A stretch of DNA of 64,000 bases from positions 11,792 to 75,791 of IMG/VR virus record IMGVR_UViG_3300031721_000685. One strand, given 5' to 3'. Source of the DNA: a virus. The notes beneath the pieces were generated by a model. That model did no database searches, was not told the origin of the DNA, and worked only from the letters and a program-made list of their open reading frames with translations. The position numbers were made by a program, and so were the translations under genes. Positions 36,144 to 63,321 of this stretch are shown piece after piece (position 1 is the stretch's first letter; every line of letters starts with the position of its first letter).

Positions 36144-36587
36144 CTAATCTTCCTTTAAAAATCGACTGATATCAAGACTAATCTTACTGTCGATACGGGC
36201 TCTCAATTCCGTTGATGAAAATCTATGTCTACGAGTATTGTAATATAATTCAATGCCATTGGTTTTGCAGAACGTTTTACCAGTGAATAACTTATCCTTA
36301 TACTCTTCGCCCAAGATTCGAATGTTGATTGGATATGTCTGAAGAATATCTTCCAAATCACTTTCCCATTCATATGGCACAATTTCGTCTACGTATGATA
36401 CTGCGCTTAGTTGTGTATATCTTTCTACAATGGTTTGTACCGGTTTGTCTTTGTTTGCTCTATCGTTTGATGGATCAATTTGTAGACCACAAATAAGATA
36501 GTCACAAACACTCGCAGCTTCTCGTAACATCATAATATGACCAGAATGTAACAAGTCAAATGTTGATGCCGTAAATCCCACTTTCAT
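36144..36587 (-). CDS. Cytidylyltransferase (TagD/RfaE-like)
   Basis: FDLLHSGH (HxGH), KP....ER, SST.LR. Confidence 0.88.
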   Translation of the reverse strand: MKVGFTASTFDLLHSGHIMMLREAASVCDYLICGLQIDPSNDRANKDKPVQTIVERYTQLSAVSYVDEIVPYEWESDLEDILQTYPINIRILGEEYKDKLFTGKTFCKTNGIELYYNTRRHRFSSTELRARIDSKISLDISRFLKED

Positions 36588-37287
36588 CTTGTAAAATCTC
36601 CCATGTATGTTTCCAACCATTTACTTGGTGTGTATACCCCATTTGGTTGTCTTCAATCGCTTTTGCTAGTGGATAGTCGTTTCCACCCTTATATGTAGTG
36701 TCGCCAAAGAATACGAGTTTGTCTTCAGTGCTGTCGAAATCTTTTACTATCTGACCCTTATCTTTACCTTTCTCAGTAATATCCATACCAATATCACCAG
36801 CAACTTGAAATTGATATTGCGTAAATTCTTGTGATAACTCTTCGGCAATTCGATTTCGTTCTTTGTGTACCAAATCGAATTTAACGTATTCTAATCTCTG
36901 TTCAGGATTGGCGTTCCTGCCAACTGTAGAGAAGTTGATAAGTCCCATGCGGTGTTCAATGTGATTGCCTGTTTTGGTCAGATGTTTGCTCTGCGCAGAT
37001 TTCTCTTTGAGAGACTTTAATAATTCTATAGATACTTTCATTTTATTCTGACTGACAACCCTGTCGCCTTCCCATACTTCATTACCTGAGCAGTTGTATA
37101 CTCTCTTAGCAGCAAAATATGTGGGAATACCTATTTGTTCGATTGTTTTGACTCTATCTGAGCCAGTAACTAGATACACGCTATTTTTATTAGAGAAATT
37201 AAAGAACCAGGTTTGAAAATCCTGATCCATCAAACTTCTGCTTGGTGTTAATGTACCATCAACGTCAAACACATAATGTAATATCAT
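36556..37287 (-). CDS. HAD-IIB phosphomannomutase-like enzyme (eukaryotic-type PMM family)
   Basis: FDVDGTLT, VTGSD, HIE.R..LINFS..GRNA..EQR, FFGD....GNDY. Confidence 0.85.
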   Translation of the reverse strand: MILHYVFDVDGTLTPSRSLMDQDFQTWFFNFSNKNSVYLVTGSDRVKTIEQIGIPTYFAAKRVYNCSGNEVWEGDRVVSQNKMKVSIELLKSLKEKSAQSKHLTKTGNHIEHRMGLINFSTVGRNANPEQRLEYVKFDLVHKERNRIAEELSQEFTQYQFQVAGDIGMDITEKGKDKGQIVKDFDSTEDKLVFFGDTTYKGGNDYPLAKAIEDNQMGYTHQVNGWKHTWEILQDESGIYGINI

Positions 37288-37309
37288 AGTACTCTCCATA
37301 CTTCATTAT

Positions 37310-39330: not shown

Positions 39331-40227
39331 CTATTTGATATTTCTGAAAGTCTTGCTGATGGATTTAGCATAGAGAGCCATCTGAGGGTCAACATACTTC
39401 GCATCTGATTCCTCATTTACTGGATCTAATTCGTCCGTCTCTTCAACAATTGCTGATTTGCCAAAATAGTTTTCTTTGATGATTTCAACTTTACGACTGT
39501 AATCATCAAGGTCTACATATTCTAGGCCTTCGGTGAGCGAACGCAGCTTTTCAGTCTGTGTATCTGCTAGTCCTTCTGAAAGAACATCGAATACGTCCGA
39601 CTTCTTAGCTTCATCAAGCTCTTTGGAAACCTCAATGTTTGTATCAAGCTGTTCGTTGAGGCTCTTTTCAAGCTCTTCGATCTTCTGTGCCATTTCAGCG
39701 ACCAGATCGACTTCTTCGTCAGGAACATCAATATGATGCTCTGAGAAAAGTTCTTTAAGACCAGAGATGAACGACTCTGCAATATCAGAGCGAATTCCAC
39801 TCTCCACTGCAAGTTCGTTTGCTTCCATCCACTGCTCTGACACGTAATCTAGATATGAGTCAACCTTCTTAGTGAGGTCTTCTGTAGCTAGTTCTACTTG
39901 CTCATCTAGTTTGAAATTAAATTCTTCTTCTAAACGAGAAACTTCTGCATTAACTTTTTCTAAAACAACTGCCTCAAAGAGAACAGCAGCCTTTTCTTTA
40001 AAATCTTCTGATAGTTCTTCACCACCAAAAATTTCTTCTACTGCTTCGCTCATAGAGTTATCGGCACCTATTTTTGTTTCGCTATCAGATACCGTATCAT
40101 CGGAATCATCAGCAATTACTTCATCAGCTTTACGCTTCTTGACACTAACTGCGGCCGATTCCATTACTTCGGAATCACTTGCAGATGCCTTCAACTCGTC
40201 TAACTGATCAATTTCTTGATCTGACAT
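39331..40227 (-). CDS. 22: Prohead core scaffolding protein (gp22)
   Basis: LSEDFKEKA..LFEA, KVDSYL.YV.E.W, ESF..GLK.LF.EH; late promoter at 40263-40270. Confidence 0.92.
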   Translation of the reverse strand: MSDQEIDQLDELKASASDSEVMESAAVSVKKRKADEVIADDSDDTVSDSETKIGADNSMSEAVEEIFGGEELSEDFKEKAAVLFEAVVLEKVNAEVSRLEEEFNFKLDEQVELATEDLTKKVDSYLDYVSEQWMEANELAVESGIRSDIAESFISGLKELFSEHHIDVPDEEVDLVAEMAQKIEELEKSLNEQLDTNIEVSKELDEAKKSDVFDVLSEGLADTQTEKLRSLTEGLEYVDLDDYSRKVEIIKENYFGKSAIVEETDELDPVNEESDAKYVDPQMALYAKSISKTFRNIK

Positions 40228-40277: not shown

Positions 40278-40946
40278 TTATTTTGAAATATTATTCAAGA
40301 ATTTTGCAAATATTTTGAACTTTTGTTCTTCGAGTTTACGAGGAGAGAGTTTTTTAGTCTCTGCTACAATCTGTTCAACCATTTGTTCACGCATCCAGTT
40401 ACCAGAAGCGATATCATAAAACCATTCTGACCCTTCCATAATACCCTTTACGAAAGCATCAGGAGCAGATGGGTCAGCGACGATATCGCCAGCAGTAGCG
40501 AGCATGAAATCGCCCTGTACTTCCATAATACCTTTCCCTGTTTGCTTAATTGACCCCATGCCACGAGATGATACGCCAAGTGTTGCACCTTCGTCCATAA
40601 GATTCTTTACTACCTTACCCATTGGAGTATCCATAATCTTTGCTTTACCAACAAAGTTTGAGCCCTCTTGATGTAAGTCAGTAATCATATGTGACACTCG
40701 CTCAAGGTTGATGGTTGGTCCATCAGGATGTCCGAGTTCACCAAAAGCTCTTTTTTTCTCTACAAATTCTTTATTATATCTCTTCACTTCTTTCGCAATA
40801 ACTTCAGAAGGATAGACACGCCCATTACGATTTTTGAGGTCGCCTTGCATGAAGACGCCTTCAATGAAATAGTTTTTTGGCTTACCTTCTTCGGCAGCTT
40901 CTGTGATGTATTTAACATCATCGTTTATTTCGCAGATTAATTTCAT
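40278..40946 (-). CDS. 21: Prohead protease (gp21)
   Basis: NRNGRVYP, GELGHP, VSH, GVSSRG.GS, D.VADPSAP.A. Confidence 0.97.
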   Translation of the reverse strand: MKLICEINDDVKYITEAAEEGKPKNYFIEGVFMQGDLKNRNGRVYPSEVIAKEVKRYNKEFVEKKRAFGELGHPDGPTINLERVSHMITDLHQEGSNFVGKAKIMDTPMGKVVKNLMDEGATLGVSSRGMGSIKQTGKGIMEVQGDFMLATAGDIVADPSAPDAFVKGIMEGSEWFYDIASGNWMREQMVEQIVAETKKLSPRKLEEQKFKIFAKFLNNISK

Positions 40947-40955
40947 TGTCCTACC

Positions 40956-41246
40956 CTAACCGTTAGAAACTGGTGTTCTGAAAACGTGGTCGCAAGCGGC
41001 ATTTAAACTAACGTAAACTTCGCCATCGCCCGCAGCACCGCTTCTAAGTTCACCAATGTCGATAAGTACGACATGCCCCGGTCCTACTGTAATCATAGTA
41101 GAAACCGCTGAAGAGGTTGTTCCAAATGAAACATTAGCAATGACTGTTGTATTACTATTGTAAATTCTTTGAAATCTACCATCTGTGATTTCAGCATGAG
41201 TAGCTGTGACTGCTACTGTATTTGCTATAAGTTTGATTGCTGGCAT
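40956..41246 (-). CDS. Small probable virion protein
   Basis: Beta-rich 96-aa ORF in the head operon; GGAG RBS. Confidence 0.55.
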   Translation of the reverse strand: MPAIKLIANTVAVTATHAEITDGRFQRIYNSNTTVIANVSFGTTSSAVSTMITVGPGHVVLIDIGELRSGAAGDGEVYVSLNAACDHVFRTPVSNG

Positions 41247-41257
41247 ATTTATCTCCC

Positions 41258-42772
41258 TTACATTGCTTGCTTGGCAAAGGCAAGAATCTCACTATTAGAT
41301 TTCTTGTCTTGCATAAACTTAGCGAGCATTGTCTTTGTGTTTGCAGGGTTCAACGACTTATATAGATTATTGAGCGCTGCTGCATCATCTTTAGAAACCT
41401 TTACCGTACTACCATCTTTAAGTTTCATGTCGGTAGCGCTGAAATTAACTGCTTCATCAAGGTCAACGGATTCGTATACTTCGTATGTCTTACCAGCAAC
41501 TACGAAAGTTTTATCACCCTTTTCTTTAGCTGCTTTTAGCGCCATTCCAAATGCGTTACCTTCCTTCATCATCTTATTAATCTCAGCACCCTTCATGTTG
41601 TGCTTCGTAATAAGTTTTGTAACTGCACTTTGAGTTACAAAAGGAATGTCCGCTTTTACCAACTTAATAAGCATCGCTTTATTGTCAGCAAACTTATTCA
41701 TAATGGCAGATAGCTTCTTAGCGTTATCTAAACTGATTTTCTTATCACGCATTGGCTCATATGCTTTTTTGAGTTTAGCAATACCTGCTGCGCTTTCCTC
41801 TAACTCTTCATTTGGGCCATAGCCTTTAGGAGTTACATCTTTAGTGCGTGACGCAACATCTTTTTTTGATTTACCCTTTGCCATTCTTTTAGCAGCATCT
41901 GGGTTTAAATTACCTTTCTTATCAAGAAACTTTGCAAGATGAGGCGGCAACCCATTTGATGCTTCATCAAGGTCAACTTCTTCAATTACATTTTTAGGAA
42001 ACGATTTTTCAATATATTTCACTACATCTTGAGTAGACCTACTATCCATTTTTGCAACAATCTTAAACTTACTACCAGATTTAGATGCAATTGTTTGGCC
42101 GCCCATTCCAGTTTTCTCTAACTTCTTTCCATCAGTTGATAACATTTTACCATTCATAGATTTACCACTATAGAACGCATCTACAACTTGTTTATCTTTT
42201 GGATTTAATGCTTCATCAAGGTCAACTTCTTCTGGAACATATTCATTCTTCTGCATCATTTTCATTGCCCCAGTTGCAAGTTTGACAATAGGAAGTTTTT
42301 CCATCTTCTTCTTGGTTGCGTCATTTACCTTGTCATAGATTTGCGAAATAGCAGATGCAGTGAAAGAATCGACCATAACACCATCAATCTTTGCAGCAGA
42401 TTTCTTGGAGGCAATCTCTTTTACCTTGTCGATAACACTCTCATTACAAATTTGTTTTGCAAACATTACGGCTTTCCAGCTTTCGCCATAAGTAGCTCGT
42501 AATGATTCTTCATTCATTTCGCATTCACAATCTTCACATCCACAGTTTTCACATTTACACTTAGTAATATTTTCTTCATAAACCGCAGCGTCTTTACCTT
42601 CTTCACTATCAGCAATACGTTTCTTCTTACCAGGAGACTTTTTTGTACCCTTTAAAGTTTCTGCATCGTTTAGCGGATGGTCAACGATACCAACGACGTG
42701 CTTGTCTTTGAAACGTTTTTCGCCAGCAGCTTTTGGCTCCAGCAGTTCTTGTAAATCTTTAAAGGATAGCAT
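41258..42772 (-). CDS. Modular prohead-core/internal polyprotein (gp68 position)
   Basis: Lies between gp67 and gp21. MLSFKDLQE start with AAGGA RBS; Lys-rich modules separated by EEVDLDEA / ELEES linkers. Confidence 0.7.
   Translation of the reverse strand: MLSFKDLQELLEPKAAGEKRFKDKHVVGIVDHPLNDAETLKGTKKSPGKKKRIADSEEGKDAAVYEENITKCKCENCGCEDCECEMNEESLRATYGESWKAVMFAKQICNESVIDKVKEIASKKSAAKIDGVMVDSFTASAISQIYDKVNDATKKKMEKLPIVKLATGAMKMMQKNEYVPEEVDLDEALNPKDKQVVDAFYSGKSMNGKMLSTDGKKLEKTGMGGQTIASKSGSKFKIVAKMDSRSTQDVVKYIEKSFPKNVIEEVDLDEASNGLPPHLAKFLDKKGNLNPDAAKRMAKGKSKKDVASRTKDVTPKGYGPNEELEESAAGIAKLKKAYEPMRDKKISLDNAKKLSAIMNKFADNKAMLIKLVKADIPFVTQSAVTKLITKHNMKGAEINKMMKEGNAFGMALKAAKEKGDKTFVVAGKTYEVYESVDLDEAVNFSATDMKLKDGSTVKVSKDDAAALNNLYKSLNPANTKTMLAKFMQDKKSNSEILAFAKQAM
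41450..42232. repeat. Three in-frame direct repeats encoding (EE)VDLDEA
   Basis: 25-nt ATGCTTCATCAAGGTCAACTTCTTC at 41959-41983 and 42208-42232; 18-nt core at 41450-41467. Confidence 0.9.
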
Positions 42773-43025: not shown

Positions 43026-43049
43026 ACCAACTCCATATATTTATATCAA

Positions 43050-44621
43050 TTAAGATTGTTCTGTTTCATCATTTGGTTCTGCTTCGACGCTCTGGTCATC
43101 ATCTTCTTCACCTTCATCATCAAGGTCATCATCACCATTTGCTTTTGCTTCAATAGCAATTTGCTCATCAATGTCTTTTATATCGTCTTCTGATTGTTGA
43201 AGTACGTTCATACGAACCCATTTTTCAGAGTAGTATTTACCAGTATATTCGTCAATATCAGCAACAATCTGTAGTCTATTTTGTAGTATTTCAGCCTGTT
43301 TCAATTCTTCAAAATGATTATCGTGCATAAAGTCGAAGCGAATAGCCGATTTAATCTTAGGCCAATCTTCTGGTGCAATCACACCTTTCAGAATTAATTG
43401 CTTCTCAAGAATTTTATTGAATAGAATAGAGAATCGATTTCGTAGTCGATTGATGAACTTAGAAAACTTCACTTCATCTCTCGTGATTTCAGAAGCTCTA
43501 CCGAGAGCAAACCCACTCTCCGTTTCAAGCCTTGAAATAGGCACGTTCAGCGATTGAAACACTCTCTTTTGAAAATATAAAATATCGTCCATTTCACCAA
43601 GATTTTGACCACCTGGAAGAGTTGTGATTTCTGTACCTTTACCACCTTCTCTTCTTGGAAGCCAGAAGTCTTCCATCATCGTCATGAACTTACGGTCATC
43701 ACGAACTTCGCCAGTAGTCGCATCATAAACGAGTCTGTTCTTATGTTTTGCCATCATATCTCTTAGATATTGCTCTGCCTTCATCTTAGGTAGATTACCA
43801 ACATCAATATAGAAAATACGGCGCTCTGGCGCACGAGAAATACGATAGATAACAGCAGCATCTTCAAGCATTCTCAATTGATTCATAGGCTTGATTGCCT
43901 TATGAAGATGAGAGAGAACGAGCGAGTTGTTTTCGTTTAAAATGCCAGATGTGGTGTGAACAATAGAATCTTTAGAAATTTTAAGACCCTTCGTGCCATC
44001 CATTCCACCAGCAGAACCGATAGAAGCTGTCTGTGCAGAAAATCCCTTGTCACTAAAGATATAGTATTCATTCTTCGTTTTTTGTATTACTGTTTCGCCT
44101 TCACGCTTCTTCTCAACTTCTTTTATCTTACGAATCTTTCTTGGATCAATAAAACGTAACTCTTTAATGCCTTCACGAACATTATTTTCGTCAATGATTG
44201 CATGATAGTAGAGCCTACCATCAACATACCATTTTTGAAAAACATCGTAGCCGACATTGGAAAAATCTAACAGGCGAATAACTTCGTCAAACTCTTCACG
44301 AATTCTTTTTTTAATCGAATCTGGTTGGTCTAAGTCGTCTGTAACGCACTCGACAACTTTTTTGTTATCAGTTACAACAACTGCTTCATTTACAATATCT
44401 TCAACTGCTTTTTGAACTTCGGGTTGTTGAACCATATTGCGATATTTTGTGACAAGCTCTGCTTCGTTTTTAGCGCCACCTTCTAAATCAACATATGTGC
44501 CATAAGCACCACCAGCAGCTACAACTAAAGAACCTTCGTCATCTGTTGCGGGAGCAAATGACTTAATGTCTTTTGTATTATCACTTTTTCTTTTAATTTC
44601 AAAACCGAACAGATTTGCCAT
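43050..44621 (-). CDS. 20: Portal protein (gp20)
   Basis: WYVDGR, IDPRK, YRI.RAPERRIFYIDVGN, EDFWLPRREGG.GTEI.TLPG; late promoter at 44683-44690. Confidence 0.98.
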   Translation of the reverse strand: MANLFGFEIKRKSDNTKDIKSFAPATDDEGSLVVAAGGAYGTYVDLEGGAKNEAELVTKYRNMVQQPEVQKAVEDIVNEAVVVTDNKKVVECVTDDLDQPDSIKKRIREEFDEVIRLLDFSNVGYDVFQKWYVDGRLYYHAIIDENNVREGIKELRFIDPRKIRKIKEVEKKREGETVIQKTKNEYYIFSDKGFSAQTASIGSAGGMDGTKGLKISKDSIVHTTSGILNENNSLVLSHLHKAIKPMNQLRMLEDAAVIYRISRAPERRIFYIDVGNLPKMKAEQYLRDMMAKHKNRLVYDATTGEVRDDRKFMTMMEDFWLPRREGGKGTEITTLPGGQNLGEMDDILYFQKRVFQSLNVPISRLETESGFALGRASEITRDEVKFSKFINRLRNRFSILFNKILEKQLILKGVIAPEDWPKIKSAIRFDFMHDNHFEELKQAEILQNRLQIVADIDEYTGKYYSEKWVRMNVLQQSEDDIKDIDEQIAIEAKANGDDDLDDEGEEDDDQSVEAEPNDETEQS

Positions 44622-51735: not shown

Positions 51736-54700
51736 TCATAAGCTTTTAGTTAAAGTGGCAATTTGAGATTTGAGTTCCTCAATTTGAGTAGATAATTCTT
51801 GAATAGCTTTAATAGCAACTGGAAGAAGTTTGCCAGGAGCAGCTTCCAATCTGTCTGGGTTTGTTTTTAACACAAGGTTCAAAACATCTTCAATGCCTGC
51901 ATCTTGCTGTGCTTGATCCAATTCTTGTGCTATAAACCCAGTCTCTTTCTGTCCTACTTTAGCTCCGTCTCTCATGTTCCATGCAAACTGAACAGGATTT
52001 AATTTGTTGATGAAGTCAAGACCAAACGGAAGTTCTTTGATGTCTGTTTTATCTCTACGATCTGACAATGCAGAAATGCTTGTGACTTGAGCACGAATTG
52101 CTGAAATATTAGCGTCACCCAGAGTAATTTCATTGCTGACGTCCACTGCCGATGCTGCCGCATCGTGACCAATGAGGGTATTGTTGCTTCCGGTCGTCAG
52201 TGCGTCACCGGCGTTCGTGCCGAGAATAGTATTGTTGCTACCGGTTGTAACGTTAGAACCTGCTTGATAGCCCATTATAACGTTTACTGCTCCGCTGGTT
52301 AAATCGTAACCGGCTTGATAACCAATAGCGACATTATAATCACCAGTAAGAACGCCTAAGCCAATAGCAGTGTAACCAATAGCGACATTATACTCAGCAC
52401 TAGTTGCGTTAATGCCTACTGAATGGCCTTGGAAGTTATTACCGTGAGTGGTAGTTAACTTATAGCCTGCTCTATAGCCAAGTAATATGTGATGGCTTCC
52501 GGTAGTTAAAATACTACCAGTCTCTTGTCCAATACCAATATTATAAGTGCCAGTAAGAACGCCTAAGCCCAGTGCTGAATATCCAACACCGAAATTATAA
52601 TCACCACCAGTTACGTTACCGCCTGCATTATAGCCTTGGAAGACGTTATGCGCACCATCAGTTAAATCGTTGCCAGCCAAACGTCCAATAGCGATATTAT
52701 AACTACCAGTAAGGACACCTGCGCTAATTGCACCGTAACCAATAGCGACATTATGACTACCAGTAGTTGCGTTAGCGCCTGCTTGATAGCCTTGGAAGAC
52801 GTTTGTAGTGCCGCTGGTTAAATCGTAGCCAGCTTGAAAACCTAGAGCAATGTTATTGTCGCCAGTTAGGACACCTAAGCCAATTGCATCTCTGCCAATA
52901 GCGACAGTATAGTTAGCAGTAGTTGCGTTACGGGCAGCGAGCACGCCAGCAAATACGTTATTATGCCCGCTGGTCAAATCTTCGCCAGCTTGACTGCCAA
53001 TAGCGACATTACCAGCACCAGTTAGAACGCCTGCGCCAATTGCTTCTCTACCAATAGCTACAGTATTAGTAGCAGTAGTTGCGTTCCTGGCTGCTACTAA
53101 ACCAATAGCGATATTATCAGCACCAGTTAGAACACCTGCGCTAATTGCTTCTTTACCAATAGCTACAGTATTAATAGCAGTAGTTGCGTTAGCGCCTGCT
53201 AGATAGCCTAGAGCGATATTATCACTACCAGTTAGAACACCTGCGCCAATTGCTTCTCTACCAATAGCTACATTCTGCGAACCAGTAGTTGCGTTATAGC
53301 CTGCTGCATAGCCTTGGAAGACGTTATGCGCACCACTGGTTAAATCATAGCCAGCATAACGTCCAATAGCGATATTATAATCACCAGTAAGAACGCCTAA
53401 GCCAATTGTCTGGTATCCAATAGCGATAGTATAATCAGCAGTAGTTGCGTTATAGCCTGCTGCATAGCCTTGGAAGATGTTGGCAGCACCACTGGTTAAA
53501 TCATAGCCAGCATAACGTCCAAGAGCAATATTATAACTACCAGTAAGAACGCCTAAGCCAATAGCAGTGTAACCAATAGCGACAGTATAGGTAGCAGTAG
53601 TTGCGTTAAAGCCTGCTGCATAGCCTTGGAAGATGTTGGCAGCACCACTGGTTAAATCTTTGCCAGCATCACGTCCAAGAGCAATATTATAATTACCAGT
53701 AAGAACGCCTAAGCCAATTGCGTTTGTGCCAATAGCGATAGTATAATGAGCACTAGTTGCGTTAAAGCCTGCTGCATAACCTTGGAAGACGTTATGCGTA
53801 CCACTGGTTAAATCATAGGCAGCAGAACGTCCAATAGCAATGTTATGGTCGCCAGTTAGAACACCTAAGCCAATTGCATTTCTGCCAATAGCGATAGTAT
53901 CATTAGAAGTAGTTGCGTTATAACCTGCTCGATAGCCTTGGAAGACGTTATATGTACCACTAGTTAAATCATAGCCAGCCTGGTGACCAATAGCGATATT
54001 GTCAGCACCAGTTAGGACACCTAAGCCAATAGCACTGTAACCAATAGCGACAGTATAGTTAGCAGTAGTTGCATTATAGCCTGCTCGATAGCCTTGGAAG
54101 ACGTTATATGCACCACTAGTTAAATCGTTGCCAACTTGACGGCCAATAGCGATGTTATCAGTACCAGTCATAACGCCTACACCAATTGCTTCATAGCCGA
54201 TAGCAATAGGATAGTTTGATGTAGTGGCTTGTAATCCTGCTTCGTACCCAACAAATACACCACCAGTGCCTGAAGTAATGTCTTCACCAGCTTTATAACC
54301 TAATGCGGTGTTATAGTTGTCCGAACCATCATCATTAGCTAAAGCATCAGTGCCTAGACCAATTGTTTTACCACTATCTAGTGTTTTGGCGTCGGACAGA
54401 TCATTAATAGCTAATGCACCAGTACCAGCATTGATTCTATCATCAATAGCGGCAGAGGTCATCAACGATGTATCATTATCAGCGAATGATTCTGCTGAAG
54501 TTTGAGCAGTAGTGAACGTTATACTATCAAAAGTAAATCCAGTACCGATTGATGGTGAAGTCAAAGTCTTATTGGTAAGTGTTTGACTACCAGTAAGGGT
54601 CGCAACAGTAGAGTCAATAGCGAATGTTCTATTAGCACCAAGTGTGCCACCACCAGTTAACCCAGTACCAGCAGTCAATGTTCGTGAAGTGTATACACCA

Positions 54701-56796
54701 TTAGTGACTGTTGCAGCATTACCTGAAGTTGCTTGATTACCAGCAGTATTGACGCCTGGTAAATTTATGTTTCCAGTACCGTCAAACGAAACACCGCCAA
54801 TTGTTCTCGCAGTCGCAAGTGCAGTTGATGTTGCCGCAAGTGCTATCGCAATATTACCAGTGCCATCAAATGATGTTCCACCAATAGTTCTAGCTGTTGC
54901 AAGTGCAGTTGTTGTTGCAGATAGTGCTACCGCAATATTAGCGGTTCCATCAAAAGAAGTTCCACCGATAGTTCTAGCAGTCGCAAGTGCTGTTGCGGTT
55001 GCAGCATTACCTGTAACCTCACCAGTTAATGTACCAACAAATCCTGTAGCAGTTACTTTACCAGTACTTGGATTGTATGTTAATGTTCCATCAGATTCTA
55101 GTCCAAGATTACCACCATCAACATCGCCACCAGCAGTGAAGATAAGAGCATTACTTTCGTTCGTAGATTCGTTATCTGTTATTGTAACCGTTGTTGCAAG
55201 TGTAGCTAGTGCAACATCAATGTTAGCAGAACCGTCAAATGAGGTTCCACCAATTGTTCTAGCTGTTGTTAAGGTAGCAGCACTTCCTGAAGTATTTTGG
55301 TTACCAGCAGCATTGACGCCGGGTAGATTAATGTTAGCGCTACCATTGAATGATACGCCACCAATAGTCCTAGCTGTTGCGAGTGTAGTTGCTGTTGCAG
55401 CAAGTGCTACCGCAATGTTAGCACTGCCGTTAAATGAGGTTCCACCAATGGTCCTAGCAGTCGTTAGAGTTGCAGCAGAACCAGAAGTATTTTGGTTACC
55501 AGCAGTATTGACGCCGGGTAGATTGATATTTGCAGAACCATTGAATGATACGCCACCGATAGTCCTAGCAGTCTCTAATATGGTAGCAGTTGCAGCATTA
55601 CCTGTGATAGCACTAGAAGTTAATGCGATTGTGCCCGTTGCATTTGGCAATGTGATAGTACGATCAGCAGTTGGGTCTGTGATTGTAAGTGTTGTTTCGT
55701 ATTCATTAGGAGTCGCACCTTCGAATATGATAGCATTTGCTGCATTCATCGTAACAGTGTCAACAGTTGTTGTTGTTCCTGCTACAGCAAGATTTGGTAC
55801 GAGCAGTGTTCCTGTACTTGGATTGTAACGTAATGCGCCCGTATCGTCCAACAATGCATTTGACTCATTGTGGAAGACTACAGGATAATTCGCATTTGTA
55901 GTGCTATCTGTAACTGTAGCAAGAGTTGCGAGAGCAGCAGTTCCGCTTGTGTTTTGATTACCAGCAGCATTAACGCCGGGCAGATCAATATTTGCACTAC
56001 CATCGAATGAAACGCCGCCAATATTTCTAGCTGTAATGCTTAACGTTACAGTACCAGATGCACCACCACCACTCAATCCAGTCCCAGCAGTTACGCCAGT
56101 AATGTCGCCAGCAGTTGCAGGCGCTTCCCATCCAGCTTCGCCGCTGGAGTCTACAGTAAGGACGTAATTATCTGTTGCGGTACTGTCTTTGACTATAAAG
56201 TTGAGTCCAGGAATCCTAAACTTGGTAATGGCTGTGTGGCCTAGCGTAATCTCGTTGGACACACCCACTGCTGATGCTGCCGCATCGTGACCAATGATGA
56301 TGTTATTGCTGCCCGTGGTTAGCGCATCACCGGCGTTCGGGCCGAGAATAACGTTGTCGGCTCCTGTTGTTGCGTTAGCGCCTGCTTGATAGCCAGCAAA
56401 TACGTTATATGTGCCACTAGTTAAATCGTAGCCAGCTTGATAACCTAGAGCAATGTTATGGTGGCCAGTTAGAACGCCTAAGCCAATCGCTTGAAATCCA
56501 ATAGCGACAGTATAATCAGCAGTAGTTGCGTTAAGGCCTGGAGCATAGCCAGCAAATAAGTTGCCAAACCCCGTAGTAACATCTTCGCCAGCTTTGTAAC
56601 CTAAAGCCGTATTTTGATTTGTTGAACCATCATCATTAGTTAGAGCGCCCGTGCCTATACCAATTGTTTTACCGCTTGAATTAGTAATAGCATCAGACAA
56701 ATCGTTAACAGCGCTAGATGCTAGAGTTGTGAAATTTTCGTCTAATTCGGCATAAGTAAGCGCTGAACCTTTTGTTGCTCTAAGTGTAATCGCCAT
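51736..56796 (-). CDS. Long repeat-rich tail fibre with C-terminal intramolecular chaperone (peptidase S74-like)
   Basis: N-terminal LR..KGS.LT..ELD.NF; TARTIGG repeats; about 42-aa Gly-rich N.A.G repeats; SDRRDK..I...GL..I..L.PV.F.W..GFIAQE. Confidence 0.85.
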   Translation of the reverse strand: MAITLRATKGSALTYAELDENFTTLASSAVNDLSDAITNSSGKTIGIGTGALTNDDGSTNQNTALGYKAGEDVTTGFGNLFAGYAPGLNATTADYTVAIGFQAIGLGVLTGHHNIALGYQAGYDLTSGTYNVFAGYQAGANATTGADNVILGPNAGDALTTGSNNIIIGHDAAASAVGVSNEITLGHTAITKFRIPGLNFIVKDSTATDNYVLTVDSSGEAGWEAPATAGDITGVTAGTGLSGGGASGTVTLSITARNIGGVSFDGSANIDLPGVNAAGNQNTSGTAALATLATVTDSTTNANYPVVFHNESNALLDDTGALRYNPSTGTLLVPNLAVAGTTTTVDTVTMNAANAIIFEGATPNEYETTLTITDPTADRTITLPNATGTIALTSSAITGNAATATILETARTIGGVSFNGSANINLPGVNTAGNQNTSGSAATLTTARTIGGTSFNGSANIAVALAATATTLATARTIGGVSFNGSANINLPGVNAAGNQNTSGSAATLTTARTIGGTSFDGSANIDVALATLATTVTITDNESTNESNALIFTAGGDVDGGNLGLESDGTLTYNPSTGKVTATGFVGTLTGEVTGNAATATALATARTIGGTSFDGTANIAVALSATTTALATARTIGGTSFDGTGNIAIALAATSTALATARTIGGVSFDGTGNINLPGVNTAGNQATSGNAATVTNGVYTSRTLTAGTGLTGGGTLGANRTFAIDSTVATLTGSQTLTNKTLTSPSIGTGFTFDSITFTTAQTSAESFADNDTSLMTSAAIDDRINAGTGALAINDLSDAKTLDSGKTIGLGTDALANDDGSDNYNTALGYKAGEDITSGTGGVFVGYEAGLQATTSNYPIAIGYEAIGVGVMTGTDNIAIGRQVGNDLTSGAYNVFQGYRAGYNATTANYTVAIGYSAIGLGVLTGADNIAIGHQAGYDLTSGTYNVFQGYRAGYNATTSNDTIAIGRNAIGLGVLTGDHNIAIGRSAAYDLTSGTHNVFQGYAAGFNATSAHYTIAIGTNAIGLGVLTGNYNIALGRDAGKDLTSGAANIFQGYAAGFNATTATYTVAIGYTAIGLGVLTGSYNIALGRYAGYDLTSGAANIFQGYAAGYNATTADYTIAIGYQTIGLGVLTGDYNIAIGRYAGYDLTSGAHNVFQGYAAGYNATTGSQNVAIGREAIGAGVLTGSDNIALGYLAGANATTAINTVAIGKEAISAGVLTGADNIAIGLVAARNATTATNTVAIGREAIGAGVLTGAGNVAIGSQAGEDLTSGHNNVFAGVLAARNATTANYTVAIGRDAIGLGVLTGDNNIALGFQAGYDLTSGTTNVFQGYQAGANATTGSHNVAIGYGAISAGVLTGSYNIAIGRLAGNDLTDGAHNVFQGYNAGGNVTGGDYNFGVGYSALGLGVLTGTYNIGIGQETGSILTTGSHHILLGYRAGYKLTTTHGNNFQGHSVGINATSAEYNVAIGYTAIGLGVLTGDYNVAIGYQAGYDLTSGAVNVIMGYQAGSNVTTGSNNTILGTNAGDALTTGSNNTLIGHDAAASAVDVSNEITLGDANISAIRAQVTSISALSDRRDKTDIKELPFGLDFINKLNPVQFAWNMRDGAKVGQKETGFIAQELDQAQQDAGIEDVLNLVLKTNPDRLEAAPGKLLPVAIKAIQELSTQIEELKSQIATLTKSL
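52150..54300. repeat. Tandem 126-nt (42-aa) repeats in tail fibre 1
   Basis: Recurring NIAIG..AG.DLTSG..NVFQGY.AG.NATTA.YT.AIG..AIGLGVLTG; boundaries approximate. Confidence 0.85.
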
Positions 56797-57765: not shown

Positions 57766-60700
57766 CTAGTTCTCGCCATCGCCATCGCCGTGACTATGAC
57801 CAGAAGCTGACACGGTGCCCTTTGTCTGGGTTATGGTTAATGCACGACCTGAAATACTAACAGATAGCCCCGTCACCACGTTACCGGAACCACTAGTTGC
57901 AACTGATACAGATGTAATACCAGTATCAGTCGGCGTTATCCAAGTAAACGAGCCATCACCATCTGATCTCAAGAACTGTGTAGATGAACCATTACCACTA
58001 ACATTTAACTCGCTTGCTCCAACAGCATCAGCAGCTATCTCGCTTGCACCAACAGCATTAGCAGCTATGTGTTCTGCACCAATTGCATTATCGGCAATCT
58101 TAGTTCCATCAACGATATCAGCGGCAAGATGAACTTTATCAATACTACCATCTACATACTGGTTGCTGTCAACTGAATTAGCAGACATATGAGCAAGATC
58201 AATACTACCGTCCACATACTGATTGCTGTCAACTGAATTAACAGACATATGAACAAGGTCAATACTGCCATCTACATACTGGTTGCTGTCAACTGAATTA
58301 GCAGACATATGAGCAAGGTCAATACTACCGTCTGTGTAATGCTCAGAGTTAATTGCATTATCAGCAATCTTAGCACCAGTTACAGCATCAGCACCAAGTT
58401 TAGCACTAGTTACAGCACTATCAGCAATTCTAGCACTTGCAAGTGTGCCAGATGAAATATTGCTTGCGTTTAATGATGTGAGTGAAGCGCCAGAACCAGC
58501 GAATATTGTCGCTGTTGCTGTGCCTGTAATCGTTACACCGCCAGAAGCAGTAGCGAGTTTAGCATTACCTGCGTTGTAGAGTGTCGCAACACCGGAAGCT
58601 GCTTTGATTGTTGCTCTATTAGTGCCTGCTGTTACAGTATAGATTGTTAGAATACCGTCTTCACTATCAGTTGTTGGGTCTGAGATTAGACCTTGAATGG
58701 AAGCGTAGCTGTGATTTGTACCAGCAGCATTATCAGCCTGAAAGAATATTTGTCCAGTTTCATCATTAGAAGCAGGAGATGCACTATCATTCTTTAGTAT
58801 TAGGTCAGGGCCTTGGGCGCCAGAGTCATTATTATAGACTGTTAATGAACCAGTTGATGGTATGAATGTAAATGCAGTAGCATTACTATCAGTGCCGTCA
58901 CGAATATAGAAGTTACCAGTGTTGATATCAGCGTATAGATGTGAACCATTATGATAGATTTCAGCATCACTGTCGCTACCAAAGCGGAGGCTAAGACCGT
59001 CATCAAACTTCATATAACCACCATCAACTATAAATGAAGTTGAGGATGTTGTAGCACCATCTAATGTAACTGCACCATTAAAGTCTGTTGTATCAGAGAA
59101 TGTTTTGTTGCCTGCGATTGTCTGATTACCGGTAGTATAGACGCCGTTTGTTACAGTGGCAGCATTGCCTGATGTACTTTGGTTACCAGCAGCATTTACG
59201 CCCGGTAGATTTATATTAGCACTACCGTTAAATGATACGCCGCCAATTGTTCTCGCAGTCGCAAGCGTAGTTGCAGTTGCAGCAAGTGCTACAGCAATAT
59301 TAGCACTACCATTAAATGAGGTTCCACCAATTGTTCTAGCAGTTGTTAGCGTAGCAGCACTACCTGTAATACTCCCAGCAATCGTTGATGAGAATGTCTT
59401 AGTTCCAGCAATAGTTTGATTACCAGTCGTTTTAACAGCAGTGGTTGGTAATCTAGCGTCAGCAATAGTGCCAGATGAAATATTGCTTGCGTTTAATGCT
59501 GTGATTGAAGCGCCAGAACCACTAAATGCTCCACTAAACGTTGTTGCGGTCGCTGTGCCTGTAATCGTTACGCCACCAGAAGCAGTAGCGAGTTTAACGC
59601 TACTACCATTATAAAGATATGCAACACCGGAATCTGCTTTGATTGTTGCTCTATTAGTGCCTGCTGTTACAGTATAGATTGTTAGACTACCGTCTTCACT
59701 ATCAGTTGTTGGATCAACAATTCTACCATCAAGATAAGCGTAGCTGTGATTTGTACCAGCAGCATTATCAGCCTGAAAGAATATTTGTCCAACTTCATCA
59801 GTCGCAGCAGGAGATGCACTATTATGCCTTAGTGTTAGTGTTGGTCCATCATCACTAGCATCATTATTCCAGAGTGTTAATGCACCAGTTGTTGGTGCGA
59901 ATGTTAATGCAGTAGCATTACTATCAGTGCCGTCACGAATATAGAAGTTACCAGTGTTGATATCAGCGTATAGATGTGAACCACTATGAAAGATTTCAGT
60001 ATCAGCGCCTGTACCAAGATTGATAGCAACACTATCATTGAACGTTAAATCGCCGGCAGTTTTCACCGCCGCGGCGGTAAGTTGCATGAGAGTGCTATCA
60101 GCGTCAATTGTTGCTTGTGCTACTACTGCTGCACGGTCATCAATAGCGGCAGCGGTCATCAACGATGTATCATTATCAGCGAAAGTCTCAGCGCTTGTTT
60201 GAGCAGTAGTAAACGTAATACCGTCAAAAGTAAAGCCTGTGCCAATAGAAGGTGAAGTAAGTGTTTTATTCGTTAGTGTTTTTGTTGTGCCGCTGAAATA
60301 TGTATCAAGAGTTGTTAGTGCAACTTGCTTCATTGCACCAGCATCGTTGTATACAACTCTATCTGCGCCAGCGGCAGTGATTGAAGACGCAGCAGTACCA
60401 CCATCAACTTTATTCAGTTCTGTAACTGTTGTAGTGAGACTTGTAAGTGTTGTTGCTGTTGCAGCATTGCCTGTAATGTTAGACGAAATTGATGCTGGTA
60501 GTCTAGCGTCAGCAATAGTGCCATCCGAGATATTACTAGCATTTAATGCTGTGAGTGTTGTGCCAATGCCGTGAACATTATCAGCATAAACGTGTGTCCA
60601 ACGAAGGGCGTCCGTGCCAAGAGTTCGTGCAGAATCCGATGATGGAACAACGTCACTATCAACTCTTGCTGTAATCGTAACTGTATCAGAAGTAGCGTTA

Positions 60701-63321
60701 CCGATATCTGTGTTGCCAACAACACTCAATGTTGTAACAATAGAATTATTGACCGTAAAATTACCACTGCCAGCAAAAGTAGCAGTACCATCTACAACTA
60801 AATTGCCAGTAATATCTACATTATCTCCAACAAACAAGTCGCCAGCGATGCCAGCACCACCAGCAACCGTTAGTGCTCCGTTATTATTGGCACTAGAAGC
60901 AGTCGTTGCAGTAACTGCAACTACACCAGCAGAACTAATCGTAACAGCATTAGGATCACTAGCAGAACCTAATGAACCACCGTCTTGGATTGTCAAAGAA
61001 GCAGCAAAGGTAGGCCTAGCAGTAAAGTTAACCACACCACCAGAAGAAATGCTTAATGCATCCAAGTCACTGGCAGAACCGATAAGACCACCATCCTTAA
61101 CAACCAAGTCACCAGCAACTTGCAAGTCACCGATTGAACTTAATGTTGCTTTAGCAGTTGCGCTAGAGGCAGCAGTTTCAGACACGCCTGTTGTAAATAC
61201 TAACTTGGTTGCATTTGCGCTTGCGCTAAATGTTCCTTCAGCAATCGCATGAATACCCGCTGCGACTGTAGCACCATCTGTACCATCTGAGTCCCCAGCG
61301 GCAAATTCTAGCGAAGCAATAACCTCATTTGCTAGAATCTCATCTTCTTCAGATTTCAGTTGAAGAACGATTGGTAGATTATCACCAGCAGTAACATGGG
61401 TTAGTGTAAGTCCAACATTATGGACATGAGCCAATGTGATTTCAGAATTAGTGCCAAACGAAACTACAGCAGCATCAGAAAGGAATCTTAAATCATCACC
61501 GATAGACAAGTCGCCAGCAATACCCGCACCACCAGCAACAGTTAGTGCTCCGTTGTTAACAGCACTAGAAGCAGTCGTTGCAGTAACTGCAACTACACCA
61601 CCAGAGGAGATTGAGATTGCGTCAGTGTCTGAAGCAGAACCAATCGTTCCAGCATTAGGAATAATAATGCTACCACCAGTGGTCATAAGACCAGCACCAG
61701 TGTATGTTCCACTTGCGTTTATGTTCGCATTAACATCTAACAAAGTTGCGTTCAGTTCAATCTCATCGGTAGCATTAATATCTAGAATAGCATTAGTAGG
61801 CGCATTGATAGATTGACTTGCATCGTTGAACTGAATAGCCATTGTGCTATTCAATAGGATACCAGTATTATGAACGTGGGTTAGAGTCACATCACCATCA
61901 GCGCCAAAGGATATTGTAGCAGCGTCATGTTGGAGTTCTAAGTCTTGTGTTAAAGTTACATCACCATCAGCACCGATAGCAATCGCATCTAAGTCTGAAG
62001 CAGAACCAATCGTTCCAGCATCAGGTATAATGATATTACCGCCAGTGGTCATAAGACCAGCGCCAGTGTAAGTTCCACTAGCATTGATATTTGCATTAAC
62101 ATCTAAGAGAGTTGCGTTAAGTTCAATCTCATCAGTAGCATTGATATTCAAAGTAGCATTAGTAGGCGCATTGATAGACTGGCTTGCATCGTTGAACTGA
62201 ATAGCCATTGTGCTATTGAGTAACAGACCAGTGTCAGCAACGTGAGTCAGAGTCACATCACCATCAGCGCCAAATCCTAGAACCGCTGCATCACTAATCA
62301 GTCTAAGGTCATCACCAACGCTTAGGTCAAGCGCAACGCCAGCACCACCAGCAACCGTTAAGGCACCAGTTGTTTTTGAAGTTGATACAGTTGTAGCAGT
62401 AACTGCAACTACACCACCAGAACTAATCGTAACAGCATCAAGGTCACTAGCAGAGCCTAATGAACCACCGTCTTGAATCGTTAGGGAAGCAGCAAAAGTA
62501 GGTCTAGCAGTGAAGTTAACCACACCAGCAGAAGAAATGCTTAATGCATCTAAGTCTGAAGCAGAACCAATAAGACCGCCATCTTTGAGCACTAAATCAC
62601 CAGCGACTTGGAAATCACCAATAGAACTTAGTGTTGCTTTAGCAGTTGCGCTAGAGGCAGCAGTTTCAGACACGCCTGTAGTGAAGACCAATTTAGTCGC
62701 ATTGGAACTAGCAGAGAATGCTCCTTCAGCGATTGCATGAATACCCGCAGCAATCGTTGCACCGTCTGTACCATCTGAGTCGCCAGCAGCAAATTCGAGA
62801 GAAGCAATAACTTCATTAGCCTCAACAACATCTTCTTCTGATTTAAGTTGTAGAACAACAGGAAGATTATCACCAGCAGTAACATGGGTTAGTGTAAGTC
62901 CAACATTATGGACATGGGTCAATGTGATTTCAGAGTTAGTACCAAATGAGACAATTGACCCATCTGATGTAAGATTTAAGTCATCTTTAACTGTTGCATC
63001 GCCGTATACGAATAAGTTGTCGGCCGATGAACCACTACCAATTTGTGTGTTCGAAGTAATGAGAAGAGTTTGCGAGTTTGCAAAACTGGTTGTTACAGTA
63101 CCACCTCTAAGGGCAGTTTTAACGACTAATTCATTAGACGAAAAGATACCGTTAACGTAACTGTTGCCCGTCGTTGTGGACTCATTCGTTAAATTAGCCA
63201 GAGAGACTGCTTTTGCTGTTACTATGATCGTTGACATATCATAGTAAAGTTCGTTTGCTTTACTCAACCAGCCAGCAAAAGTTCCTGTTGTAGAGTTTAC
63301 ATTGGTATATGCTTTGGCCAT
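57766..63321 (-). CDS. Giant repeat-rich tail fibre/structural protein
   Basis: N-terminal TF..W..K.N; Ala/Thr/Gly-rich; large internal duplications; TARTIGG, LTNKTL and DGSID/IADNAI repeats. Confidence 0.8.
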   Translation of the reverse strand: MAKAYTNVNSTTGTFAGWLSKANELYYDMSTIIVTAKAVSLANLTNESTTTGNSYVNGIFSSNELVVKTALRGGTVTTSFANSQTLLITSNTQIGSGSSADNLFVYGDATVKDDLNLTSDGSIVSFGTNSEITLTHVHNVGLTLTHVTAGDNLPVVLQLKSEEDVVEANEVIASLEFAAGDSDGTDGATIAAGIHAIAEGAFSASSNATKLVFTTGVSETAASSATAKATLSSIGDFQVAGDLVLKDGGLIGSASDLDALSISSAGVVNFTARPTFAASLTIQDGGSLGSASDLDAVTISSGGVVAVTATTVSTSKTTGALTVAGGAGVALDLSVGDDLRLISDAAVLGFGADGDVTLTHVADTGLLLNSTMAIQFNDASQSINAPTNATLNINATDEIELNATLLDVNANINASGTYTGAGLMTTGGNIIIPDAGTIGSASDLDAIAIGADGDVTLTQDLELQHDAATISFGADGDVTLTHVHNTGILLNSTMAIQFNDASQSINAPTNAILDINATDEIELNATLLDVNANINASGTYTGAGLMTTGGSIIIPNAGTIGSASDTDAISISSGGVVAVTATTASSAVNNGALTVAGGAGIAGDLSIGDDLRFLSDAAVVSFGTNSEITLAHVHNVGLTLTHVTAGDNLPIVLQLKSEEDEILANEVIASLEFAAGDSDGTDGATVAAGIHAIAEGTFSASANATKLVFTTGVSETAASSATAKATLSSIGDLQVAGDLVVKDGGLIGSASDLDALSISSGGVVNFTARPTFAASLTIQDGGSLGSASDPNAVTISSAGVVAVTATTASSANNNGALTVAGGAGIAGDLFVGDNVDITGNLVVDGTATFAGSGNFTVNNSIVTTLSVVGNTDIGNATSDTVTITARVDSDVVPSSDSARTLGTDALRWTHVYADNVHGIGTTLTALNASNISDGTIADARLPASISSNITGNAATATTLTSLTTTVTELNKVDGGTAASSITAAGADRVVYNDAGAMKQVALTTLDTYFSGTTKTLTNKTLTSPSIGTGFTFDGITFTTAQTSAETFADNDTSLMTAAAIDDRAAVVAQATIDADSTLMQLTAAAVKTAGDLTFNDSVAINLGTGADTEIFHSGSHLYADINTGNFYIRDGTDSNATALTFAPTTGALTLWNNDASDDGPTLTLRHNSASPAATDEVGQIFFQADNAAGTNHSYAYLDGRIVDPTTDSEDGSLTIYTVTAGTNRATIKADSGVAYLYNGSSVKLATASGGVTITGTATATTFSGAFSGSGASITALNASNISSGTIADARLPTTAVKTTGNQTIAGTKTFSSTIAGSITGSAATLTTARTIGGTSFNGSANIAVALAATATTLATARTIGGVSFNGSANINLPGVNAAGNQSTSGNAATVTNGVYTTGNQTIAGNKTFSDTTDFNGAVTLDGATTSSTSFIVDGGYMKFDDGLSLRFGSDSDAEIYHNGSHLYADINTGNFYIRDGTDSNATAFTFIPSTGSLTVYNNDSGAQGPDLILKNDSASPASNDETGQIFFQADNAAGTNHSYASIQGLISDPTTDSEDGILTIYTVTAGTNRATIKAASGVATLYNAGNAKLATASGGVTITGTATATIFAGSGASLTSLNASNISSGTLASARIADSAVTSAKLGADAVTGAKIADNAINSEHYTDGSIDLAHMSANSVDSNQYVDGSIDLVHMSVNSVDSNQYVDGSIDLAHMSANSVDSNQYVDGSIDKVHLAADIVDGTKIADNAIGAEHIAANAVGASEIAADAVGASELNVSGNGSSTQFLRSDGDGSFTWITPTDTGITSVSVATSGSGNVVTGLSVSISGRALTITQTKGTVSASGHSHGDGDGEN
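58139..58333. repeat. 60-nt tandem repeat, about 3.2 copies
   Basis: Near-identical units encoding DGSIDLAHMSANSVDSNQYV. Confidence 0.9.

Follow-up and report, generated by a model that had tools for sequence, protein, structure and literature searches.

Modules exchanged at a repeated coding linker in a putative head polyprotein of marine T4-like phages

Why would a single gene in the head operon of a marine phage carry the same 25 nucleotides (nt) twice, and an 18-nt core of them a third time, in one common frame and between unrelated coding sequences? The gene lies in a 64-kb stretch of DNA (hereafter the window) that forms positions 11,792 to 75,791 of the 75.8-kb IMG/VR record IMGVR_UViG_3300031721_000685, from an uncultured marine T4-like myophage and ~42% complete. 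It occupies 41258-42772 of the window on the minus strand, from an ATG at 42772 to a stop codon at 41258-41260, and encodes 504 amino acids (aa). These limits rest on the open reading frame (ORF) and on start evidence, since the ATG has an AAGGA ribosome-binding site and relatives share this Met, and they agree with an initial annotation made from the sequence alone. That annotation had described a head polyprotein of swappable modules, delimited by repeats that serve both as a recombination handle and as a proteolytic release site.

The internal proteins of T4 are the textbook case of proteins injected by a phage, with IPI blocking a restriction enzyme and Alt reprogramming the host RNA polymerase, and the diversity of such proteins outside the T-even phages is poorly mapped. 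We argue here that the 504-aa gene probably encodes a precursor chain of head-internal proteins, in which the linkers are predicted cut sites as well as the joints at which modules are exchanged. The family would then represent a compact scheme in which one targeting leader loads many such proteins and the set is reshuffled module by module. The phages concerned, relatives of the pelagiphage HTVC008M and the methylophage Melnitz, are very common in the sea, and the operon is the most conserved that they have.

A repeated linker with shared codons

Read on the plus strand, the 25-mer ATGCTTCATCAAGGTCAACTTCTTC is identical at 41959-41983 and 42208-42232, a spacing of 249 nt or 83 codons that proved exact on re-checking, and identity ends on both sides. 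Its 18-nt core occurs exactly three times, starting at 41450, 41960 and 42209, with no other copy in the 75.8-kb record, and the third copy (41450-41467) lies in the same frame of the gene as the other two. When up to three mismatches are allowed, the core has four matches (the three exact copies and one site with three mismatches in the portal gene), a number reached by none of 100 shuffles (mean 0.08); the 25-mer is also the sole repeated 25-mer in the window once two giant repeat-rich ORFs are set aside. On the minus strand the copies translate in one common frame as PEEVDLDEA, IEEVDLDEA and YESVDLDEA, all of them containing VDLDEA as first annotated. Given the amino acids and the codon usage of the window, the probability that all six VDLDEA codons are alike in three copies is ~3 × 10−5. 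The peptides between the copies, described initially as unrelated and Lys-rich, indeed resemble one another at their linker tails only and contain 16-20% Lys.

The same spelling recurs across the family of related genes, where 147 linkers from 45 distinct genes have the core GAA GAA GTT GA(C/A) CTT GAT GAA G. Numbering residues outwards from the predicted cut, with P1 before it and P1' after it, Leu is encoded by CTT in 96% of linkers and 31% elsewhere in the same genes, Asp at P4 by GAC in 94% (25% elsewhere) and Val by GTT in 96% (49% elsewhere), with GAT for the Asp at P2 in 93%. Outside linkers, LDE[AG] sites use other codons (TTA or CTA). Linkers beside unrelated modules share these codons, which therefore reflect common descent from, or homogenisation to, one DNA sequence rather than convergence of the peptide.

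So strong a departure from background codon choice might also be read as a sign that the repeat is kept for a function as nucleic acid, for example as a signal in RNA or DNA, to cause pausing or to provide an internal start. We consider this extremely improbable, as no hairpin is shared by the three linkers (z-scores of −1.9, +1.2 and −0.2) and neither a Met nor a ribosome-binding site follows them. Moreover, the P4 codon changes freely from GAC to GAA or GGC while the Leu and Glu codons hold, and the constraint is therefore on the peptide.

Exchange at the linker in wild populations

Of the marine metagenome runs listed, 17 contain at least half of the sampled words of the window, and the 20 runs with any part of it represent 17 studies. 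Contigs of four runs (X2, X12, X14 and X16, of which X14 and X16 belong to different studies) were mapped on the gene. Contigs of X14 and X16 join 41958 to 42208 and thereby skip exactly 249 nt, with 25 letters that fit both sides of the joint, so that repeat copy 1 forms one side and copy 2 the other. These deletion-form contigs reach depths of 74 and 165, with shorter sides of 105 and 253 nt, respectively. The depth over the skipped interval, which holds the module that we call B, is 1-12 in these runs; the full form is thus present there at lower depth and both alleles coexist, whereas X2 and X12 carry the full form. The gene is therefore polymorphic in wild populations, and the 25-nt joint fits an exchange or deletion inside the repeat, whether by homologous exchange or by slippage between repeats.

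A contig of X16 also carries extra sequence at ~42572-42580, after the residues VYEE, with 303 record letters between aligned pieces that overlap by 9 nt on the window; it corresponds to the form of the gene seen in the relative P0004. Loose contig ends and short-sided joints concentrate at the three linkers and at sub-junctions within modules, including loose ends at 41454-41477 around the third repeat copy and at 41563, 41782 and 41839 farther inside the gene. Joints with short sides (20-24 nt) and uncovered parts of runs were used for location only and are not counted as further evidence. Taken with the shared DNA sequence of linkers beside unrelated modules, the X14 and X16 joint supports the proposed recombination handle: the linker is a DNA joint for module exchange.

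The relatives are metagenomic, modules at 90-95% identity could mislead assemblers, and many of the short-sided joints rest on the linker alone, all of which would suit a mosaic created by assembly, with chimeras of co-occurring phages that share modules. Such an artefact is nevertheless very unlikely. The same architectures were recovered many times over from independent assemblies of different sources (ENA, JGI, Tara and MGnify), the deletion form stands at high depth in two studies, and two cultured phages carry members of the family. A 25-nt repeat is, in addition, below the final k-mer size of usual assemblers.

Module architectures among relatives

A word-index search returned >1,100 homologs, and an exhaustive search returned 1,641 cluster representatives, 550 of them with E < 1e-10; most are partial matches to the query, many of them with high identity. 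In those that we call type I, the leader MLSFKDLQE and a 64-aa tail (...ILAFAKQAM) are kept and the modules between them vary, giving proteins of 442-759 aa between flanking genes that are 85-98% identical in protein. The gene has a cassette structure: the 76 complete type I proteins fall into 31 module architectures, all of which open and close with the same modules, and homology blocks end at linkers. The initial annotation had anticipated this pattern, in which the number and order of modules differ among relatives and the repeat marks the junctions. More widely, 285 proteins resolve into 214 segment families, and arrays range from two to more than ten modules.

Individual modules can be followed from gene to gene. 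Over their aligned parts, P0004 and P0006 share 99% identity with the window protein, yet precisely module B is missing from them, such that ...EYVPEEVDLDEA runs directly into SNGLPPH..., and P0005 has an unrelated 73-aa module in the place of module B. DNA of module B recurs at 92-94% identity, over nt 539-818 of the gene and from linker to linker, in genes of a second type (type II, below) and in locus L038, the rest of these genes being unmatched. Similarly, module A2, which precedes it, has 95% nt identity over gene nt 329-563 in the otherwise unrelated L018 and L019, and the match ends at linker 1. Within the single gene pair formed by L005 and the window gene, different modules are 87%, 84% and 75% identical in nt. 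Locus L038/L039 (2290-4176) is from a T4-like lineage with a portal of only 54% identity, and its polyprotein, with the leader MKTIKSILEE, occupies the same slot between portal and protease; the 92% DNA identity of its module B suggests that this one module has recently moved horizontally between distant phages.

Judged from its sequences, type II is a second frame that draws on the same module pool, with a leader of the form M[ST]xYxKTM... and a tail ending ...ERKNG. Its loci include L048 (2956-4680) and those of the two cultured phages that carry family members, Pelagibacter phage HTVC008M (L001, 5338-6456) and Methylophilales phage Melnitz (L061, 3321-4709). In L048 and Melnitz the type II gene directly follows a cytidylyltransferase/DUF5824 gene, a homolog of an 840-aa gene of the window. 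No type II polyprotein gene was found in the present record, which is incomplete (~42%). Two hybrids, L031 and P0262, combine a type II leader with a type I tail. Natural protein ends also match module edges, P0206 beginning at P1' and P0244 stopping just before a linker, and a module of the family may stand at the start of a protein, at its end or by itself, bounded at P1 or P1'.

Anatomy of the 504-aa protein

The features of the window protein, all on the minus strand, begin with the leader MLSFKDLQE (aa 1-9, 42746-42772), which in comparison with other leaders is capsid-targeting-like and ends in L-x-E. It is followed by a constant basic N-terminal segment (aa 10-67, 42572-42745) that ends in VYEE, matches phrog_26626 (function unknown) and is predicted to be disordered, with a predicted local distance difference test score (pLDDT) of 30-54. 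This segment is 87% identical in nt in all type I relatives up to a homology break at aa 67. Then comes an optional Cys-rich mini-module, A1 (aa 68-109, 42446-42571; CKCENCGCEDCEC), which may bind metal. Some close relatives have A1 and others do not; in P0004 and P0007, for example, it is replaced or missing. The type II protein of Melnitz has a similar CxxCxC stretch.

Module A2 (aa 110-180, 42233-42445) is predicted to be a folded alpha/beta unit (pLDDT 79-85) and spans aa 110-187 with linker 1 (EEVDLDE|A, 42208-42232), which is repeat copy 1 and has its predicted cut after E187. The body of module B (41984-42207; module aa 188-270) is an alpha-beta4-alpha domain in the model and is followed by linker 2 (EEVDLDE|A, 41959-41983), with a predicted cut after E270. 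Module C (aa 271-440, 41468-41958) is composed of C1, C2 and C3; its sub-junctions follow E326 and E404, homology breaks off at aa 310 and 404, and its C2 unit is also found in HTVC008M. Linker 3 (VDLDE|A, 41450-41467), with a predicted cut after E440, leads into the constant C-terminal module D (aa 441-504; aa 442-504 at 41261-41449; pLDDT 82-92), which comes last in 76/76 complete type I proteins. Its nt identity is only 73-75% where neighbouring modules reach 84-93%. The protein has seven L/I-x-E sites, all of them at module junctions.

In an AlphaFold2 model built from a 60-sequence alignment, folded units lie at about aa 111-176, 331-430 and 441-504 with pLDDT of ~62-92 (block means of 62-84 for 331-430), and all three linkers sit in segments of pLDDT <50 between folded units. 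Module B was also folded alone, the other modules only within the whole model (C2 included), and gave a pLDDT of 86 and a predicted template modelling score (pTM) of 0.73, with 52 for the linker tail; modelling thus presents it as an autonomous domain. No module has a Pfam or PHROGs match above threshold, and Foldseek against the PDB returned no match for the whole model or for module B, the best VIA-align Z being 5.0 for each and none above 5. Searches of BFVD and the ESM Atlas return uncharacterised phage proteins only. Family-wide, such modules amount to hundreds of small predicted autonomous folds, candidates for host-takeover or counter-defence factors.

A head operon with its own maturation protease

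The gene sits in the head operon. At all type I loci with known flanks the order on the minus strand is gp19, gp20, gp67-like, polyprotein, orf96, gp21, gp22 and gp23, where gp19 is the tail tube, gp20 the portal (Portal_T4, 2.4e-174), the gp67-like gene encodes a prohead protein of 75 aa, the gp22 scaffold protein matches T4_CASP and the major capsid protein gene lies downstream of it. The closest cultured portals, those of cyanophages and Sinorhizobium phages, are 54-57% identical. Intergenic gaps from the gp67-like gene through the polyprotein gene and orf96 to gp21 are 9-25 nt, and a T4-type late promoter, TATAAATA (43038-43045, minus strand), stands just upstream of these four genes; this motif has 17 sites in the window against 5.5 expected, and the sites are placed before head genes. 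The presumed processing enzyme is a gp21-family prohead protease (40278-40946, minus strand; Peptidase_S77, PF03420, 1.5e-36; phrog_207, 7.7e-79), encoded two genes downstream of the polyprotein gene in a common late unit.

The linkers as predicted protease sites

T4 gp21 cuts after Glu in L/I-x-E (PMC9026906), and the linker, with a Peptidase_S77 protease in the same head operon, matches this consensus as the initial annotation had noted. To characterise junctions independently of the motif, ~370 of them were sampled by their flanking modules: >95% follow the pattern x-x-x-[D/E/G/N/K]-L-[D/E]-E-x, with Leu at P3 and Glu at P1. P2 varies (D/E/N/H/T), and a deeper alignment of module B yields the variants NLHE|A, NLNE|A, ELTE|A and RLDE|A; the Leu at P3 and the Glu at P1 are therefore the invariant part of the linker, P2 and P4 being free. 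In the capsid protein, SLLME|AAP stands where T4 has FLTE|AEI.

The leader points in the same direction. As a pattern match only, L-[Q/E/K]-E is found at residues 7-9 in 82/88 distinct leaders of the MLSF type, and other leaders in the family (MKTYKQIVQE, MKTIKSILEE and MKTFKTLVSE) resemble the start of T4 IPII/IPIII, MKTYQEFIAE, as given in the T4 record. In T4 the capsid-targeting sequence comprises 10 leader residues, with residues 4 and 7 important for targeting and residues 8 and 10 for processing (PMC9026906). An Asp at position 10 prevents IPIII from being processed. Cutting at the three linkers would yield product A of 19.8 kDa (isoelectric point, pI, 5.7), B of 9.1 kDa (pI 9.2), C of 18.6 kDa (pI 9.7) and D of 7.0 kDa (pI 9.6), to be compared with the basic internal proteins of T4 of ~8, 10 and 20 kDa (PMC9026906).

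On the precedent of T4, the polyprotein gene would be expressed late, together with the prohead protease, and the leader MLSFKDLQE would probably direct the entire precursor to the scaffolding core, the part played by the capsid-targeting sequence in IPI, IPII and IPIII. As the head matures, cleavage by the gp21-family protease would probably follow the Glu of each L-x-E linker and release about four products of roughly 20, 9, 19 and 7 kDa, three of them basic, which would remain with the DNA and probably be delivered into the host alongside it. We thus infer targeting, cleavage, packaging and injection by analogy with T4, and the order of leader, module and L-x-E linker would amount to a design rule for loading multiple foreign proteins into T4-type heads.

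Several findings weigh against a precursor chain that is cut and recombined at its linkers. Predicted product A is acidic, unlike T4 internal proteins. Module bodies across the family show no shortage of L/I-x-E (96 sites found where 94 were expected), and avoidance of the motif, which had been considered as a sign of protease pressure, is accordingly uninformative; within the module bodies of the window protein there are none against 2.5 expected (P = 0.06). The literature yielded no virion proteome for any family member, including HTVC008M and Melnitz. At synonymous sites, the bodies of orthologous modules match the linkers in conservation (0.87-0.96), and the agreement of linker type at P4 within a gene is marginal (0.48 vs 0.43, P = 0.03). 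A length of 25 nt is short for T4 recombination, for which patches of <50 bp are the reported need (PMC2839356), and slippage would give the same joint. Finally, the data are metagenome contigs, and some of the rarer mosaics could be assembly chimeras.

An alternative is that the chain remains uncut, as a multi-domain head or core protein, for instance a scaffold accessory in the place of gp68, where acidic EEVDLDEA stretches are flexible spacers and changes of domain are tolerated. Its position in the gp68 slot, the presence of L-x-E sites unavoided within modules and the constant N- and C-terminal parts, which suggest a role for the whole chain, would all suit such a protein. A spacer, however, needs no invariant Leu at P3 and Glu at P1 amid free P2 and P4, the capsid maturation site bears the same motif, modules also serve as first, last or sole units that end at P1 or P1', and there is no similarity to gp68. 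We therefore regard an uncut protein as unlikely, and a cleaved precursor of head-internal proteins as the better account of the junctions.

How modules might be exchanged

Since the same ~24-nt linker stands beside unrelated modules, in-frame loss, gain and swapping of modules are possible through general recombination or slippage. General T4-type recombination or repeat slippage would delete, insert or replace a module in frame, and each exchange would regenerate the cut sites. No dedicated recombinase need be invoked, as the initial annotation had supposed: the 75.8-kb record (42% complete) encodes no tyrosine recombinase (PF00589), and it does encode UvsY and UvsW, near the head genes.

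We tentatively suggest, with less than even confidence, that the linker is dual-coded, its peptide being a release site for the head protease and its DNA a portable recombination site that keeps the frame, such that single injected mini-proteins are traded combinatorially with no dedicated recombinase. Were this so, abundant ocean phages, even those with portals 54% identical, would be swapping presumed host-takeover or counter-defence factors inside an otherwise frozen head operon.

Another possibility is that the linkers have no role beyond cutting and that their DNA identity is passive, cassettes moving with their own linker by illegitimate recombination or duplication and in-frame products being selected. 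The equal synonymous conservation of module bodies and linkers, the weak agreement of linker types within a gene and the brevity of a 24-25-nt identity all speak for it. Extra synonymous conservation of linkers had been sought among orthologs, and as module bodies match them, the signal exists only between linkers at different positions; the codon signal therefore marks shared DNA ancestry across positions, not additional selection on linker DNA. A purely passive repeat nonetheless accords poorly with a wild deletion joint that falls inside the 25-nt identity with no letters extra or missing, with homology blocks of unrelated genes that span both flanking linkers and end within a few nt of them, and with GAC at P4 and GAT at P2 kept across dozens of junctions at different positions. 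T4-type phages are, moreover, known to recombine at short conserved motifs, namely PeSLs (PMC2839356) and the glycine-rich motifs of gp38 (PMC3157838). On balance this passive origin seems improbable beside a linker that takes part in exchange, of which the locus offers a natural, population-level case at a 25-nt coding repeat.

Comparison with known systems

The polyprotein is most like the T4 internal-protein system recast as a single-leader chain of in-frame cassettes, with an exchange logic like that of PeSL and gp38 shuffling. With IPI, IPII, IPIII and Alt (PMC9026906, PMC3012670) it shares a short leader with hydrophobic residues 4 and 7 that ends in L/I-x-E, a gp21-family protease in the phage, late expression with head genes, and small, mostly basic, fast-diversifying and mutually unrelated products, although here the likeness is known from sequence and the polyprotein has no sequence similarity to any of them. 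In T4 these are separate genes, each with a leader, scattered in variable regions, whereas here one leader heads a chain with predicted internal cut sites in a conserved head operon. The core proteins gp67, gp68 and gp22 of T4, cut by gp21 into fragments (PMC9026906), are alike in the slot between gp67 and gp21 and in having several L-x-E sites per chain. The fragments for the most part exit the head and lack the folded-domain character of the units in this family, which are predicted to be autonomous and are exchanged between phages. As a candidate gp68 homolog the polyprotein was rejected (BLASTP of T4 gp68, E = 3.5; no prohead-core PHROG or Pfam match).

Internal virion proteins cut by a viral maturation protease at a short repeated motif are also known from African swine fever virus (pp220 and pp62) and adenovirus (pVII and pre-Mu). 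Unlike the present family, these polyproteins have fixed content and no cassette exchange, and the viruses and proteases are unrelated.

With respect to exchange, the 'His boxes' of gp37, in work attributed to Tetart et al. in 1998, are reportedly conserved coding motifs like those of gp38. In gp38 adhesins, glycine-rich motifs conserved within one ORF separate variable segments and may be crossover sites (Trojet et al. 2011, PMC3157838); there the motifs build up the core of a single domain, with the segments as its loops, whereas the linkers described here are predicted to be disordered between independent domains. PeSLs likewise are short repeats that flank non-essential cassettes and through general recombination allow these to be inserted, deleted or replaced with no dedicated recombinase (Arbiol et al. 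2010, PMC2839356), but they are intergenic promoter-terminator units of ~100 bp, whereas the linker has ~24 nt, is coding and in frame, and also encodes a putative protease site. The PeSL authors compare their system with integrons and report that recombination needs <50 bp of homology (PMC2839356).

An integron-like cassette array had also been proposed for the window gene. The cassette exchange stands and the rest holds as an analogy only, the modules being in-frame parts of one ORF with constant array ends. Modules behind a single late promoter loosely recall cassettes with a common promoter; an integron proper was rejected, with no PF00589 in the record (42% complete) and no attC-type hairpin.

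Polyvalent proteins (Iyer et al. 2017, PMC5512222) are alike in combining many unrelated domains in one polypeptide, in their predicted packaging and injection with DNA and in possible proteolytic release. They have recognisable enzymatic domains and often a peptidase of their own, whereas the modules here are tiny and unannotated, with stereotyped linkers and a separate head-maturation protease. The head-operon setting fits a predicted delivery with DNA, as context only; assignment to the polyvalent class was rejected, as no module reaches the Pfam threshold and no fold match exceeds Z = 5. We found no publication that describes such genes in literature searches that combined polyprotein with prohead protease and internal proteins or used the motif strings.

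Neighbouring genes and other observations

A related linker, EEFDLDEG, does occur at 3732-3755 (minus strand; codons GAA GAA TTT GAT CTT GAT GAA GGC) inside the 840-aa gene at 2688-5210 (minus strand), as initially annotated. The product, also described there as a polyprotein, is a fusion of enzyme-type domains and not like the array of mini-modules: a cytidylyltransferase-like N-terminus is followed by a basic stretch, DUF5824 and a P-loop kinase (AAA_33/Zeta_toxin). In its sequence this protein resembles the polyvalent class more closely than the modular polyprotein does. Its homologs in L048 (839 aa) and Melnitz (651 aa) have other domain sets, and a 178-aa ORF downstream in the window (2155-2691, minus strand) matches the C-terminal domain of both, split here and fused there.

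Within the head operon, the 96-aa product of orf96 (40956-41246, minus strand), between polyprotein and gp21, is 69-73% conserved across type I loci, is neither basic nor Lys-rich, and has no family match and no similarity to T4 gp68 (BLASTP of gp68, E = 23). The protease homolog has ITE|A at residue 16, near its N-terminus, and IME|G at residue 171, near its C-terminus, which are candidate self-processing sites; we draw the comparison with T4 gp21, for which self-processing has been proposed. Five L/I-x-E-[A/G/S] sites occur in the scaffold protein (39331-40227, minus strand), including ELDE|A (KELDE|AK).

Elsewhere in the window, phosphomannomutase-like and cytidylyltransferase-like genes (36144-37299, minus strand) lie between the capsid gene block and uvsY. 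The two giant ORFs (51736-56796 and 57766-63321, minus strand; 1,686 and 1,851 aa) are rich in internal DNA repeats, with many 18-25-mers that recur at ~156-nt spacing, and probably encode fibre or surface proteins made of repeat domains. Two tails, the acidic C-terminus of the portal (DDDLDDEGEE; 43107-43147, minus strand) and that of the gp67-like protein (DFDLNVDLDDE), are linker-like in both peptide and DNA (GAC CTT GAT GA), a resemblance that may reflect chance in acidic tails or may mark protease or core-binding elements.

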